Position numbers and translations under genes: made by a program. The notes under the pieces are model-generated. The model ran no database searches, had not been told where the DNA came from, and saw only the letters and a program-made list of their open reading frames with translations. From a virus, in IMG/VR virus record IMGVR_UViG_3300001041_000017, positions 16,058-80,057 of that record: DNA of 64,000 nt, one strand, 5' to 3'. Of this stretch, positions 4,688 through 42,491 are shown piece after piece (the stretch's first letter is position 1; each line of letters opens with the position of its first letter).

Positions 4688-7600
4688 CTTGCCTACAAAT
4701 TACCTCTTACAAACAGAAGTAATAGCAGATGTAAATAATTTTAATACTGGTATGAGTCAGGCAGAAAAACAATTAATGTCTTTAGGTGCTGCTGGAATGG
4801 CACTTAATACGGTATTTACTAATTTACAAAGATCTATTTCAGCGTTTAACGCTAGTTTAAAGAATCTAAATAGTACAAGTTTCACAAACATACGAAGCAA
4901 TTTAAAAGCATTACAGACTTTAGGTAGGATTAATATACAAACAAAAGTAGATCATTCTGGGGTAGACCAAGTTATTACAAAACTTAAATCTGCTCATATG
5001 CTTAGAAATATCAATATTCAAACAAAAGTATATATGATTCCAGTAAACAATCTCATCACAAAATTAAAAACTGCCCATGCTTTAAATGATATAAGAATTA
5101 AAACTCAATCTGATAATAAAGGTGTTAATGATGTTGTAAAAAAATTAGATTCAATAAAAATATTATTAACCCATCCTATGGAATTGAGAATAAAAGCAGA
5201 ATTAACACCACTTAATTCTGTTGTAACAAAATTGATGGTTATTAAGAAATTATTAGAAGTTCCAATGAATCTTAGACTAAATGGAAGTCAGGCAAATTCA
5301 GTTTTCGCAAATATAAGAAGTTTATTCGCTGGAATGAGAGGAATAAGAATTGAGGCTGATAATTCAAGAATTGCAGAAACTTTAAGAGTTCTTAATCGAA
5401 TCATAATAGCAATAAATAAAATAAATGGTTCAAGGATTAGGGTAGATATTAACGGAAATCCATTAGGAGATTTAAGAAGAAGAACGGATCATGCAACAGA
5501 CGGAATTGAGGCTTTAAGAAATTCAGTCAGAAATTTAAAGAAAGATATGTATTTACTTGCCGGAGTAGGTTATATTTTCACTGGTGGGTGGATTTCTGAA
5601 AAACTATGGGAGGCTTTTGTTAAGCCTAATATGGAACTAGAAAAGATGAAAATATCTTTTGAAGTTCTTTTAAAGGATAAAGAAAAAGCAAAAACTTTGA
5701 TAGATTGGACCATAAAAGAAGCTGCGGTAAGTCCCTTTGAATCAAGAGGAATGCAGGACTTCGCTATGAAGATGTTAGGAGCTAATTTAGATCCAATTAA
5801 ACATTATCAGGTATTAAAAGATTTAGGAGCTTCACCTTCCCCATTAGGTTTGACTTCAGACCAGAACCTATCAGAGTTAGGTAGAATTATAGGATTAGCC
5901 TCCGGTGGTCAAATAGGTTTAGCTATGGACTCTATGGCATCCTTCTTTCCGGTAATAAGTCGTGCATCTATGAAACAATCGGCTGGATCTAAATTTGATA
6001 GCCAGAATCAGTATATGGGAGACTTTAAAGATTGGTTGGAAGATTTAAAAATAACTGTGGCAGATAGATTAGGTGGAATGTCAGAAAGAATAGGTAAAGA
6101 GACAGTATCGGGCAGATTAAGTACATTATCTGATATATATAATATTAGAAAGAAAGATATTGGGGATGTTAAATTATATGGATTAGTTTCATATGAAATA
6201 GAAAAATTAACAAAACTACTTTTAAGAGTTAAACCTGAAAATGTTGAAGCTATTGGTAAAGCTTTAGCCGACATGGTCAAGGTGGGATTAGAAGTTGTAA
6301 AAGTTTTCGGAGCGATTGTCTATTTATTTCTAATCAATTGGCAGACAATAAGATTTCCAATAGTAACAGCTACTTTTGCTTTAGTCGGTTTTTATACAGC
6401 CTCATTGTTAGTAGCTACTTTTAGGCCAATATTTGTTTTCCTAAGAATGTTGTACGCTGGATTTATGTCTTTAATAATAATTCAAAGGGCTAGATTTTGG
6501 TTAGTCTCATTTATGCTTACGGTAAATGGAACAGGACCTATTGCAGTATTATCGGCATTAATTCGTAGACTAGCTTTAGCTTTTGCATTCTTAAGATCTC
6601 AAATAGTAGCTCAAGGTTTATTAACCTTTTTAAGATCTTTTGGAAGGTTAGCCTTATCTTTATTGAATCCTATAAAATTACTAACATTAGGAGTTAAAGG
6701 TTTAGGGGCAGCATTTTCTTTTTTAACAACAGCTACAGGTCTAAGACTTATAATAATGTTGGCAGCAATAGCTATAGGTATTGCAGGGATGACAGGGATG
6801 CTTGACGGAATATTTGAAAAGTACCCAAGTTTGAAGGAATTCTTTGGTTTTAGTCCAGCATTTGCTAGTGATTTTGATTATGATGAAGCAGTTAAAAAAG
6901 CATTATCGGAACAAGATGAAGCTCTAAAGGGAAGTGACTTAACAAGTATTCCTGGATACCAAGAAAATGATATTACGGCAATAGCTTTAGCTATTAGGAC
7001 AACGAAAGAAAAATATGACGACATAAGAAATAGAATAATGAGTGAAAGAGACAGAGATTTAGAGAACTTAAAACAAAAAGATCCAGATGCAGAACAATCA
7101 GACGAGTATAAAAAAATTCAGCAAGAAGCTGACAAAAAACTTTTAGAAATAAACAAGAAACTTATAGACGAATTAAATGTTATTGGAGATAAAAAGACAT
7201 CCGATGAGGATAGAAATAAATTATTGGCAGCCATAGCAGAAACTCAAAAAGAATCAGCAGAATATTTGAATGACATAAAATATAACACGATGCAAAATCA
7301 ATATTCAGCTACGAAACAGCATGGAGATCTAGTAACATCCTTAGCTTCTGGTAAAAAAGACGTAGGGTTATTACAATACCTTGTCCAAAATCCTTTCGGA
7401 TTACGAGAAGAATCTCCAATGTATAGGCAATTAAGTAAAAATTATAGTATGGATATTATTGAATCGTTGAAGGATCAATTTAAAAGATTGACGGAGCAAA
7501 GAAATAAATTTGTAGATCAAGGTTATGGAGAAGGTAGCGATCAATTAATGCAAATTGATTTAGATCTTTTAAACGTCCAAAAAGAAGCTTTAGGACATTT

Positions 7601-7820
7601 GGATGAAATTAAAAAATCACTAAATCAAGGATCATTCAATCTTCCTTCAGGTATAAGTCCAATAACTTTGTACGATTACCATTCTGGCAAACCTGGTGGA
7701 ACTAGATCTATGACTTTTAAAGATTCTAAGTTTACCGTACAAGTTAAGCAATTAGCTGATATAGGTAATTCTTCATTTGAGGATGAGATTTCTAGGGCTG
7801 TAGCCCGATGGAGTGGATAA
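4677..7820 (+). CDS. Tape measure protein
   Basis: 1047 aa; N-terminal ~27-aa repeats, tape-measure core (ISFEVLL...A...SPF...T.SGRLSTL.D) and a hydrophobic central region. Confidence 0.9.
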   Translation: MVNSLPTNYLLQTEVIADVNNFNTGMSQAEKQLMSLGAAGMALNTVFTNLQRSISAFNASLKNLNSTSFTNIRSNLKALQTLGRINIQTKVDHSGVDQVITKLKSAHMLRNINIQTKVYMIPVNNLITKLKTAHALNDIRIKTQSDNKGVNDVVKKLDSIKILLTHPMELRIKAELTPLNSVVTKLMVIKKLLEVPMNLRLNGSQANSVFANIRSLFAGMRGIRIEADNSRIAETLRVLNRIIIAINKINGSRIRVDINGNPLGDLRRRTDHATDGIEALRNSVRNLKKDMYLLAGVGYIFTGGWISEKLWEAFVKPNMELEKMKISFEVLLKDKEKAKTLIDWTIKEAAVSPFESRGMQDFAMKMLGANLDPIKHYQVLKDLGASPSPLGLTSDQNLSELGRIIGLASGGQIGLAMDSMASFFPVISRASMKQSAGSKFDSQNQYMGDFKDWLEDLKITVADRLGGMSERIGKETVSGRLSTLSDIYNIRKKDIGDVKLYGLVSYEIEKLTKLLLRVKPENVEAIGKALADMVKVGLEVVKVFGAIVYLFLINWQTIRFPIVTATFALVGFYTASLLVATFRPIFVFLRMLYAGFMSLIIIQRARFWLVSFMLTVNGTGPIAVLSALIRRLALAFAFLRSQIVAQGLLTFLRSFGRLALSLLNPIKLLTLGVKGLGAAFSFLTTATGLRLIIMLAAIAIGIAGMTGMLDGIFEKYPSLKEFFGFSPAFASDFDYDEAVKKALSEQDEALKGSDLTSIPGYQENDITAIALAIRTTKEKYDDIRNRIMSERDRDLENLKQKDPDAEQSDEYKKIQQEADKKLLEINKKLIDELNVIGDKKTSDEDRNKLLAAIAETQKESAEYLNDIKYNTMQNQYSATKQHGDLVTSLASGKKDVGLLQYLVQNPFGLREESPMYRQLSKNYSMDIIESLKDQFKRLTEQRNKFVDQGYGEGSDQLMQIDLDLLNVQKEALGHLDEIKKSLNQGSFNLPSGISPITLYDYHSGKPGGTRSMTFKDSKFTVQVKQLADIGNSSFEDEISRAVARWSG

Positions 7821-7823
7821 TAA

Positions 7824-9116
7824 ATGTCTTTTACAGACTGTTTTAAATTATACAGAATAGATGATACATCTCCAACATATTCTGAAAACTTTGATTATGA
7901 ATCAGCTAAATTTGGAGATCAGAATCAAAATAATTTCATAGCAAATATGGGACATGGAACATTTTTTAAAGTAATAAAAGATGGCTATTTAACACAGGCC
8001 AAAGCTATTCTTAACTGTATATCGCAGGGAGGATACTTTAAATGTCTAGTTAATGTATACAAAACAGACGGTACTTCCTTAGAATATATTTCTTCTGCCG
8101 AAGCTATAAGATCAGTTACATCACCAGGAAAAGCGGATTTATGGATAAGTTTCGATAACCTTTATTTGTTGGAAGGAACTTATTATATAGCACTCTGGCC
8201 GGATGTCTCTACCTCCCCAGCAAACGGTTGGCAGATTTTAGCTGCAACAGGAAGTGTTGAAGAAACAGAATATATAGAAAAACCAGAAACATTAATCGGT
8301 GGATTTAATGGTAGTGGAATTTCTCAATCTGGAGCATACATTACAGAATATTTTGATCATTATTGTATTGTAGAAATACTTATGGGAAATATAACGGCTG
8401 GCTCATCCTCTTCTTCTGAAGACTGGAATATTGTCACAGGTTCTTCTTGGGAAACGGGAGTTCCTTGGAGTATTCTAAAAAGTAAAGAAAAAGAAATAGG
8501 ATCTAGATGTGTTTATACGCAGGAAAAAACATTTAACAAACCTGGAGTTGTTAAATTTACAAGAAGAATTTTTGTTAATTTAAAAGAAACAAATAATCAA
8601 AAAAGTAAACTTAGTTTTTTCATAGATGGAATATTAAAAGTATCATGGAAAGGAATTCACCCTTGGGAATTGTTTGATACCTATTTTATATTTCCTGCCG
8701 GAGAACATACTTTTACTTGGATTTTTGAAATAGAAGAAGAGGGGTCTTACGCAGAACTTGGATTAATAGAGTATTATAAGTTTCCCCCATTGAATGATAT
8801 AGAAATAATGGAGTATAAACCTGGAAGACCAGAAATAGTTATGGCTGAGACTTCGGTTATAGACGGTTTTTCTGGGTGGCAACGGGGAGCATATAAAGGT
8901 ACTGTTTTCAGTATGAAATTATACATATATGAAAACGATGCTTATTTGGACTTTATAAAAAATCTGGACAAGGCTTATATATGGGTAGATGAATTATGTA
9001 TCCCATATGTAGGCGTTTTCGTTCTGGAAGATGATATAAGTAAAATTGGGGCTAACTGTGCTTATATTGTCTCTTGCAAGCTACACTGTCCTCAAATGGC
9101 AGGTGTAGGAGCATGA
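7824..9116 (+). CDS. Tail protein (distal-tail position)
   Basis: Follows the tape measure gene; beta-rich. Confidence 0.5.
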   Translation: MSFTDCFKLYRIDDTSPTYSENFDYESAKFGDQNQNNFIANMGHGTFFKVIKDGYLTQAKAILNCISQGGYFKCLVNVYKTDGTSLEYISSAEAIRSVTSPGKADLWISFDNLYLLEGTYYIALWPDVSTSPANGWQILAATGSVEETEYIEKPETLIGGFNGSGISQSGAYITEYFDHYCIVEILMGNITAGSSSSSEDWNIVTGSSWETGVPWSILKSKEKEIGSRCVYTQEKTFNKPGVVKFTRRIFVNLKETNNQKSKLSFFIDGILKVSWKGIHPWELFDTYFIFPAGEHTFTWIFEIEEEGSYAELGLIEYYKFPPLNDIEIMEYKPGRPEIVMAETSVIDGFSGWQRGAYKGTVFSMKLYIYENDAYLDFIKNLDKAYIWVDELCIPYVGVFVLEDDISKIGANCAYIVSCKLHCPQMAGVGA

Positions 9117-10651
9117 TTATACAGCCATTCACTTCTAAAAGTAATCTTGATTATCTCCAGTCTAAATTAGCGATTGGAGATAAAAAACCAAGATGTATTG
9201 TAAAGTTTTTTTATACAGATAGTAGTGGTATTTATACTGGTCTAATTTTTGAAAAAACTGTTTCTGTAGATATAGATCAAAAGATAGATACTCCATGTTC
9301 TGAAGCAACAATAAAGATAGATAATCCTATGGGTAGTTATTCTCCATTTTATGATGCAGCTAAATTTCCAGAAATAAATCTTCAACCATTTAATTTTAAG
9401 AATTTGTTTCTACCAAATACAAAAGTAGAAATTTGGTTAGGTTACGGAAACAATATAAAGAAAAGATTCACTGGTTTAATAGATAAAGTCAGTTTTGCTG
9501 GATTTCCTAACACAATGACTCTTAGAGTTTTAAGTATGTATAAAATAATTCAGGAACATATACTAGAACCCCCTGGGGGTTCCTATACTTATCATTGGTG
9601 GTCTGCCGGAAGTATAATGGGAGACTTAATTGATAGGTGTACCGGACTTCCTGTTATGTTTGAAGAGGTTATGATTTGGGACGGTTCCAGGGGAGATTAT
9701 GTTCCATATACAATAGAGAGTGTAGAATTTAAGTATGGAGAGTTTTTGAGTGATTCTGTTTCTAGCATAGCAAAAACTCTGAATCATAGAATTGGAGATA
9801 ATGCTGAAGGTGTTATTTATTTCAAAGAAGATATTTACGATGCTACTTGGCCGGAAGATCACCTATATACAGACTGGGTAGGTTTAAAAGAATTAAGTAT
9901 GGATATAGATGATCAAAAAATAAGAACTCATGTTATGGTTTTTGGTGGTAGCGGATTTAATCTTTTTAGAAATGATTATTTATTTAATGAAATAGCAAAA
10001 GGGAGAAGAAAAGTATCTCAAATTCCTCTTTGGTGGGGAGATACAAGAGAAAAAAGAGAAGTAGCTGCAAGGAAATTTTTTAGAGATATTTTAAGAAAAT
10101 TCAAAACAGGTAGTTTTGTTTCTACAGGAAACCCTAATATAAAGATAGCCGACTTAATACGTCTGAGAAATGTAGGAACCGGTATAAATTCTAAGTATAG
10201 GGTTGTTGGAATAAAGACATCTTTCAATACTTCTGGGGTCTATTTAGACAATATAGAATACGAATCATGTCAAAATCTATCTTATGTTGTTGAGGAAAGA
10301 AGTGTTGTTATTCCAAAAAAACCAGTTGAAGAAACTTTCTTTTTTGAGTCTTTTGATACTTACAAAACAACATTAAATCCTGGTTTTTATAAAACTTTTC
10401 AATCAGAATTAAATCCTTTCCCTTTTGGTATCCAACATAATGAAGCGGAAGGTTGGGGTGTAGCGATTAGTAATGCAAATGATCCAATACCTATAACCCC
10501 AGACAATGTAGAGGTTCCTTCTGACGTTCCTGAAAAACCTCTAAATGAAGAACCTCATCCAGAAATCATAGAAGTATGGTCTGACGGAATTTTAATGGAA
10601 AAAAGATTATCAGAACCACCCTATACTATTTTATATAAAAAACCTTCCTAA
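9113..10651 (+). CDS. Baseplate hub/Tal-like tail protein
   Basis: 'P.TKVEIWLGYG....RFTGLIDKV' and 'GNP.I...D.I......G....Y.V..I' hub motifs; ATG 9113 overlaps the upstream stop. Confidence 0.7.
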   Translation: MIIQPFTSKSNLDYLQSKLAIGDKKPRCIVKFFYTDSSGIYTGLIFEKTVSVDIDQKIDTPCSEATIKIDNPMGSYSPFYDAAKFPEINLQPFNFKNLFLPNTKVEIWLGYGNNIKKRFTGLIDKVSFAGFPNTMTLRVLSMYKIIQEHILEPPGGSYTYHWWSAGSIMGDLIDRCTGLPVMFEEVMIWDGSRGDYVPYTIESVEFKYGEFLSDSVSSIAKTLNHRIGDNAEGVIYFKEDIYDATWPEDHLYTDWVGLKELSMDIDDQKIRTHVMVFGGSGFNLFRNDYLFNEIAKGRRKVSQIPLWWGDTREKREVAARKFFRDILRKFKTGSFVSTGNPNIKIADLIRLRNVGTGINSKYRVVGIKTSFNTSGVYLDNIEYESCQNLSYVVEERSVVIPKKPVEETFFFESFDTYKTTLNPGFYKTFQSELNPFPFGIQHNEAEGWGVAISNANDPIPITPDNVEVPSDVPEKPLNEEPHPEIIEVWSDGILMEKRLSEPPYTILYKKPS

Positions 10652-38587: not shown

Positions 38588-38654
38588 AAATAATCCCGAC
38601 TGTTCATTTAAAAAAGTGTTGGGTGTGAAAAGTATTTGAAAAAGTAAAAACAAT

Positions 38655-38707
38655 TAAAAGTACGCCGTGTAGAAAAGGTTTAACCTTTTCTACACGGCGT
38701 ACTTTTA
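38655..38707. repeat. 53-bp perfect palindrome (26-bp arms, 1-nt centre)
   Basis: TAAAAGTACGCCGTGTAGAAAAGGTT T AACCTTTTCTACACGGCGTACTTTTA. Confidence 0.95.
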
Positions 38708-38780
38708 TTTTCAAAACAAGGGAAATTACCTTAACTGATTAGATATATTAAAGATAAGAGATAAAATTATTAAAGAAGGG

Positions 38781-41782: not shown

Positions 41783-41830
41783 TGTCCTAAATTGTAAGGG
41801 CGGGCAAAAGTACCTTTACAATTTAGGACA
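41783..41830. other. Putative attP site
   Basis: 15-bp perfect inverted arms (TGTCCTAAATTGTAA / TTACAATTTAGGACA) around an 18-bp core, 7 bp after the integrase stop. Confidence 0.7.
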
Positions 41831-41839
41831 ACAAAAACC

Positions 41840-42259
41840 CTAACAATGATTAATGTTAGGGTTTAATTTTTCCTGTAATTCTATTATGCTGTTGATGATT
41901 TTTTCGAGAGTGGAGACAGGGATTTTTTTATCATATGCTTTTTCGATTAAGAGAATATACGGAAGGAAATCCGTATGAGAAAGTATGTCTGGACTTAATT
42001 TATTATTGAGAATTCCTGATTCGTAAACATCATTTAAAGTAAAGTCGAACAAAAAATAAAACGGAGACACATTAAGTATTTCACTAAGAGTTGATATTAA
42101 TTCTTTAGAAATATTTTTACCTCTTTTATCTTTAGAAAGAACACTAATATAAGCTGCGGTCACATTTACCTTTTCTGCTAACTCCTTTTGTTTCAAACTC
42201 CTATTCTCCATAATTAATTTTAACTTTTCCCCAAATGTCAGAACATCAAATCTCTTCAT
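41840..42259 (-). CDS. XRE-family HTH repressor
   Basis: GEKLK...R.L.QKELAEKVNVT.AYIS HTH; GGAGGTG RBS; the only well-supported minus-strand gene. Confidence 0.9.
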   Translation of the reverse strand: MKRFDVLTFGEKLKLIMENRSLKQKELAEKVNVTAAYISVLSKDKRGKNISKELISTLSEILNVSPFYFLFDFTLNDVYESGILNNKLSPDILSHTDFLPYILLIEKAYDKKIPVSTLEKIINSIIELQEKLNPNINHC

Positions 42260-42439: not shown

Positions 42440-42446
42440 TTCGACA
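42440..42446 (-). promoter_or_regulatory. Spo0A box
   Basis: TGTCGAA on the minus strand, in context TTTGTCGAAAAA. Confidence 0.5.
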
Positions 42447-42462
42447 AATTAACTGAATGTTG

Positions 42463-42491
42463 TTGACATTAAGGTTATTATGAAATATAAT
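42463..42491 (+). promoter_or_regulatory. Consensus sigma-A promoter for the sigma-like gene
   Basis: TTGACA-N17-TATAAT. Confidence 0.85.

Follow-up and report, generated by a model that had tools for sequence, protein, structure and literature searches.

A 48-bp inverted repeat just downstream of a large serine integrase gene is probably the attP of that integrase in a free, abundant groundwater phage. Four lines of evidence lead to this assignment: the enzyme is intact, the site begins 8 nt past its stop codon, the geometry is that of the attP sites of related elements, and the integrase-side arm resembles theirs only when registered on the central AA or one position beside it. The assignment is further supported because the site lies between the integrase gene and a gene for an XRE-type repressor, as in a lysogeny module, because three phage variants of 98–99% identity all have it intact, and because the AA at its centre is non-palindromic, as directionality requires. 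The nearest relatives of the integrase split the sporulation gene cotJC. The predicted crossover dinucleotide and one half-site of the phage differ from theirs, and a Walker A coding sequence is a reasonable guess for its target, judged from the bases at the centre of the site, with no single gene picked out by the data.

Anatomy of the 48-bp site

The window, by which we mean the whole 64,000-nt stretch of DNA that was analysed, comes from a linear IMG/VR virus record of 80 kb whose completeness is put at 67%. Within it, positions 41783–41797 and 41816–41830 form perfect reverse-complement arms of 15 nt. The arms reach 18 nt with 17 of 18 positions complementary, the sole mismatch being G41798 against T41815, and they enclose 12 nt (41801–41812) without any symmetry. 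The symmetry centre falls between A41806 and A41807. An earlier, sequence-only reading of this DNA had described a 48-bp site with perfect 15-bp inverted arms and a central AA, exactly as we find it.

The arm 15-mer is rare in the 64-kb window: allowing no mismatches, it occurs at the two arm positions only, and allowing up to two mismatches it has three matches, where chance would give 0.34. Counting the site itself, the same stretch has only four inverted repeats that reach 14 nt with a spacer no longer than 40 nt. It has what is expected of an attP, namely a length of about 40–50 bp, inverted half-sites, a non-palindromic central dinucleotide and a position beside the integrase gene.

Table 1. 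Features of the candidate attachment site and its immediate neighbours (window coordinates)
Feature	Position	Strand	Basis or remark
Large serine recombinase (integrase), 529 aa	40186..41775	+	Pfam PF00239, PF07508, PF13408
Candidate attP, 48 bp	41783..41830	.	18-nt arms (17/18) around a 12-nt asymmetric centre; intact in L007 and L009
Integrase-side arm (P)	41783..41800	+	GGGC adjoining the centre, as in relatives' P arms
Asymmetric centre CGGGC-AA-AAGTA	41801..41812	+	Predicted crossover dinucleotide AA at 41806-41807, from symmetry and arm register
Distal arm (P')	41813..41830	+	Reverse-complement symmetry
Two-way intrinsic terminator	41835..41864	.	Terminator scan; 11-pair stem, 8-nt loop, T-runs on both strands
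XRE/cI-type helix-turn-helix protein	41840..42259	-	Pfam HTH_3, 1.6e-7; convergent with integrase

Integrase and gene neighbourhood

The 529-aa form of the integrase, which is the representative of its cluster (P0001), has resolvase catalytic, recombinase and zinc-ribbon domains in Pfam, plus a long C-terminal region. In an alignment of 32 sequences, Y36, R38, S40 and 60-odd further columns are invariant between the window protein and 31 relatives; every residue that is invariant among those relatives is present in the window integrase, the R-x-S catalytic motif included.

The convergent XRE/cI-type protein is likely to be the lysogeny repressor. Genes for a DnaB-type helicase and a primase lie upstream of the site, and genes for a zinc-finger protein, a dUTPase and a DNA polymerase with matches among phage polymerases lie downstream; these Pfam and protein matches bear out the earlier claim that phage genes flank the site on both sides. 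One downstream protein was first read as a sigma factor, and Pfam shows only zinc fingers in it. Ahead of the zinc-finger gene, at 42440–42491, a Spo0A-box heptamer (TTCGACA) stands 16 nt upstream of a perfect TTGACA-17-TATAAT promoter; the heptamer has 5 copies in the window against 5.05 expected, and so is not evidence when taken alone.

The integrase and repressor genes converge on a terminator at 41835–41864, 5 nt beyond the 48-bp site, which a terminator scan called on both strands. The same scan did not call the 48-bp site, whose loop is 12 nt long and is not followed by a T-run. Because a canonical two-way terminator is present so close by, the site is not needed as one, which weighs against the alternative, named with the first reading, that the hairpin acts only as a bidirectional terminator.

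The site might nonetheless do something other than recombine, as an RNA hairpin in the 3′ untranslated region of the integrase mRNA (acting in stability or attenuation) or as the binding site of another dimeric protein. Its predicted fold as RNA is very stable (−25.6 kcal/mol, z = −7.6), its position upstream of the terminator means that it is probably transcribed with the integrase, and recombination at the candidate attP is itself a prediction. Against this, the 12-nt loop and the missing T-run are unlike a terminator, and the true terminator follows; a site downstream of both convergent genes is badly placed for an operator; and position, size and register all match the attP sites of the relatives. 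We consider such a non-recombinational role improbable.

Relatives of the integrase split cotJC

The window integrase belongs to a clade whose members flank split copies of cotJC, its best homologues being 36–43% identical and coming from spore-forming Bacillota. No integrase of between 43% and 90% identity was present in the protein collection, single-protein locus searches with the integrase found nothing, and an alignment-based search of viral contigs returned one distant match. Most of the relative loci contain a truncated reading frame, either beside the integrase or a few kilobases upstream of it, and where this frame adjoins the integrase the joint lies 5–110 nt past the integrase stop codon. 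The truncated frame begins MW(I/V)YEKKL and finishes ...Q(Y/L)GGPD. In all five genomes tested (G001–G005), serine-recombinase elements ranging from about 5 to 76 kb interrupt the Pfam Mn_catalase gene (CotJC) at its GGPD codons. Elements that split cotJC belong to Clostridia, Desulfotomaculia and related groups, and were seen in Pelotomaculum terephthalicicum JT, Ruminiclostridium cellobioparum, Pseudobacteroides cellulosolvens and Acetivibrio alkalicellulosi. No paper on an intervening element of cotJC, or of spoIVA, was found in the literature searched.

Both junctions of the split Mn_catalase gene were read in two genomes, G004 (L036) and G005 (L067/L116/L121). For the 7.3-kb Pelotomaculum element (G004), the attP rebuilt from these junctions is perfectly palindromic over 17 nt around GG and has a block of 12 nt, GGCGGGCCGGAC, in common with attB, comprising the codons for G-G-P-D. 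That of R. cellobioparum (G005) has arms that match at 13 of 17 positions and a 10-nt block in common with attB. Overall, attP and attB of the relatives are identical at 25/48 and 18/48 positions, core included, and their arms are essentially unshared; over the inner 24 nt, a manual count gives 12–14 identical positions in these true pairs. The premise of the sequence-only reading, that attP often shares a core with attB, therefore has a precedent in this clade, in which attP carries 10–12 nt of target coding sequence.

In one Syntrophomonadaceae metagenome-assembled genome (MAG; locus L039), an apparently intact palindromic att site, GAAGTTCTGC-CC-GCCGAACTTC, lies 12–45 nt past the integrase stop codon, and the locus has no cotJC fragment. 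This may be another unintegrated member of the clade.

Arm register and the predicted crossover

The candidate attP resembles those of the cotJC elements in being a near-perfect palindrome that starts just past the integrase stop codon, with GCC(C/G) adjoining the centre on the integrase-side arm. The crossover centre lies 16–108 nt past the stop codon in the 13 relatives measured and 31 nt past it in the window. Aligned outward from the AA, the integrase-side arm of the window agrees with the P arms of relatives at 8–11 of 20 positions, against a mean of 5.2/20 for shuffled arms; P is about 0.004 for the best comparison (L081), the relatives not being independent of each other. When the assumed centre was slid from −8 to +8, arm similarity peaked sharply and only at 0 (mean 9.4) and −1 (mean 10.0), the other registers giving 3.8–7.4. 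The peak favours the attP assignment and also a crossover on the AA or directly beside it. Base for base, the arms of the window are only modestly similar to those of the relatives.

The differences from the cotJC elements are concentrated at and beyond the centre. Their centre is GG and that of the window is AA. The distal inner half-site is GCCGGA in the cotJC elements and AAGTAC in the window, and the inner 5 nt of the two half-sites of the window have nothing in common, in contrast to the symmetric GCCGGA of the relatives. The symmetric part adjoins the centre in the cotJC elements, whereas in the window it begins 6 nt away. The comparison suggests that the window enzyme has kept GCC(C/G) beside the centre on one arm and appears to have changed GG to AA, together with the other inner half-site.

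Consistent with its AA symmetry centre, the window site is not centred on the GG of the cotJC sequence GGC GGG CC(G/C) GA, and no 24-mer match of at least 18 positions was found in cotJC loci. Two ways of reading the core as cotJC-like were tried and rejected. A register centred on the GG within GGGCGGGC, suggested by the heptamer GGCGGGC that is common to the cotJC core, gives an arm mean of 5.2/20 against 9.4–10 and lies off the symmetry centre. A Mn-catalase 'GGQ' reading fails because intact catalase paralogues read GGPQGE with other codons.

The phage DNA is found in free form

Two further metagenome contigs carry the site intact. L007 agrees with the window at 98.3% of positions overall and at every position of the site; L009, at 99.05% overall identity, has two changes there, G41798A, by which the arms become complementary at 18 of 18 positions, and C41805T. 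The site is not unusually conserved, given these 2 changes in 48 nt in L009 against 0.9% divergence overall. Contigs of 22–628× depth from four groundwater runs of one study, possibly the source of this DNA, run through the intact site, and no joint or loose end at the site was seen in the contigs of those runs. The earlier suggestion that this is the excised or virion form is thus supported, the DNA being present in free, unintegrated form, as a phage contig of 300–600× depth in groundwater assemblies. The integrase cluster occurs on 15 contigs, the longest of 119.9 kb; as all recorded integrase contigs are about 120 kb or shorter, they do not demonstrate lysogeny.

Searches of viral contigs, metagenome contigs and groundwater assemblies found no attL, attR or attB of this phage. 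Scanning with the arm 18-mer gave one chance match in viral contigs and 27 single-arm matches with unrelated flanks in metagenome contigs, and a loose arm pattern retrieved only AT-rich chance hairpins from viral contigs. One locus (L005) with GGGCAAA near an arm was considered as a junction and rejected as a chance match, since its neighbours are dockerin and FG-GAP genes and neither a phage gene nor a catalase gene is present. A near-identity DNA search of phage records returned no match, and protein searches of phage records returned only relatives of at most 33% identity, which gave no clue to the host.

Two other features distinguish or mark these closely related genomes. The 8-nt loop of the terminator (window 41845–41854) reads ATGATTAA in the window and in L007, and its reverse complement, TTAATCAT, in L009, a flip of a hairpin loop between phages that are 99% identical. 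At 38652–38710, between a small open reading frame and the primase gene, a 29-nt palindrome is 97% complementary with a 1-nt spacer, and the alignment of L007 to the window breaks just beside it; this palindrome may act as an origin of replication or mark a hotspot for hairpins.

Candidate targets

Positions 41794–41817 translate to VRAGKSTF, as the sequence-only reading had it. In that frame, stop codons stand on either side within the site, TAA at 41788 and TAG at 41824, so the octapeptide is a reading of the DNA and not part of a gene. In addition, the codons for V-R and T-F lie within the symmetric arms and are reverse complements of one another, which means that their matches to any protein motif are not independent.

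From this octapeptide, attB had been placed in the 5′ part of spoIVA, with VRTGKSTF given as the SpoIVA P-loop. That motif is indeed present in 20 of 21 sampled genes; the exception, L182 (G047:C1:970585-970765), is a SpoIVA Walker A with alanine for the usual threonine, VRAGKSTF. Were attB in these codons (around K30), a lysogen would have an interrupted spoIVA, made whole again when the phage excises in the mother cell. The octapeptide of the core is thus the Walker A of one real SpoIVA and agrees with the other 20 at seven of eight residues, and the relatives of the integrase target a mother-cell sporulation gene. Among the spoIVA genes, that of L092 comes closest, with 13 contiguous nucleotides (AA plus AAGTACCTTTA) and 19 of 24 positions in common with the core, a match as good as those of the relatives' true attB/attP pairs.

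Most of the comparative evidence points away from spoIVA. No spoIVA fragment borders any of 79 relative loci, so that the split spoIVA genes sought beside homologous integrases did not appear. A search of 401 Bacillota genomes for the 24-nt core gave no match of at least 21/24, that is, with three or fewer mismatches. Of these genomes, 301 were tested for SpoIVA_ATPase and 254 have it, and among the matches listed for the 301 genomes no spoIVA was split at its Walker A; five low-scoring matches reflect frameshifts, decay or contig ends. The 21 spoIVA genes agree with the core at 12–19 of 24 positions (median 15), and 20 of them use a TCN serine codon and not AGT. The longest contiguous run in common with the site is 16 nucleotides in ABC-ATPase genes and 13 in the closest spoIVA gene, and the V-R and T-F codons fall in the symmetric arms, a part of attP that in the relatives is not common to attB. 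With no junction, relatives that split cotJC and a core that agrees so incompletely, the proposed attB in spoIVA is not upheld. Within this limited sampling we saw no spoIVA-intervening element with spoIVA fragments at its ends, and other genes match the site better. That an integrase of the cotJC clade, in a free, abundant groundwater phage, has switched its target to the lysine codon of the spoIVA Walker A is, in our judgement, highly doubtful.

One distant locus among the 79, L092 of an uncultured Bacilli MAG (about 5000–9300), has a large serine recombinase of 25% identity with an unbroken spoIVA gene 3 kb upstream.

The sequence-only reading had named another P-loop NTPase gene as its less specific fallback, and this fares as well as spoIVA or better, while being unproven. 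Here the Walker A codons that contain attB would be those of some other P-loop gene, such as one for the ATPase of an ABC transporter (GSGKSTL). The block of the window that corresponds to the attP/attB block of the relatives reads GGC AAA AGT ACC, and its 14-mer has 37 occurrences in 301 genomes, compared with about 12 of a reversed control. Of 30 inspected matches to the 14-mer, 17 are the Walker A of ABC, FliI or ArgK-type ATPases, and several (L139, L147 and L151) share 16 contiguous nucleotides with the site, which cover the whole asymmetric centre. Each genome has many such sites, however, a poor property for a specific attB, and no candidate resembles the arms (at most 26/48). Serine integrases need identity between attP and attB at the central 2 nt only, so the core need not mirror attB at all. 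We regard a target of this type as unlikely. Because the Walker A codons of many P-loop genes fit the core, the DNA cannot tell spoIVA from the others, and a P-loop target of some kind, all such genes taken together, is a tentative proposal.

Discussion

The first reading of the 48-bp site as an attP is supported by its position, size, symmetry and non-palindromic centre and by the sites of the relatives; the spoIVA target attached to that reading is not. The model that we favour is that of a phage of about 120 kb with a lysogeny module in which the 48-bp site serves as attP. A dimer of the integrase would bind the two symmetric arms and cut with a 2-nt stagger at or next to the AA at 41806–41807, and strand exchange would follow with a host attB of the same central dinucleotide. 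The different centre and distal inner half-site would mean that the phage has moved to a target other than cotJC. By homology with the relatives, the block most likely to be common to attB would be GGC-AA-AAGTACC, which reads G-K-S-T.

The cotJC elements are the closest comparison. Their attP carries a few target codons at the crossover, and such codons are presumed for the window. The carriers differ, integrated elements of 5–76 kb on the one hand and a free phage of about 120 kb on the other, as do the targets, cotJC at its GGPD codons in the elements and, as predicted from the site, something other than that position of cotJC in the window.

The SPβ prophage of Bacillus subtilis integrates through SprA, with SprB as directionality factor, at an attB in spsM (PMC4191935, PMC5499854). 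It is likewise a phage of more than 100 kb with a large serine integrase and an att site beside the integrase gene, and it targets a mother-cell sporulation gene, as does the integrase clade of the window phage. For SPβ, integration, target gene, directionality factor and sporulation-coupled excision are all established, whereas the window phage is likened to it from its genes and site alone. The skin elements in sigK, with SpoIVCA in B. subtilis and CD1231 with CD1234 in C. difficile (PMC5025042), and the gin element in gerE (PMC5595907) use the same kind of enzyme and show that the wider family inserts precisely inside sporulation genes. They are defective or minimal integrated elements, in contrast to the window, which comes from a free, abundant phage with no known integrated copy.

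If spoIVA were the target after all, a lysogen would sporulate only after excision in the mother cell, as with SPβ, and the sequence of attP alone would have foretold the target. The reach of such core-based prediction is limited, in that true pairs in the clade share 10–12 nt and the Walker A reading fits many genes. If attB were mapped, the pair would provide a new orthogonal integrase/att set and a gauge of how well an attP core predicts its target.

To find an attP next to a serine integrase is ordinary for a phage, and the useful result is comparative: the predicted crossover dinucleotide and one half-site of the window member differ from those of a clade that always cuts cotJC at a single codon. 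The phage would thus be a natural example of retargeting within a clade of integrases that split sporulation genes.
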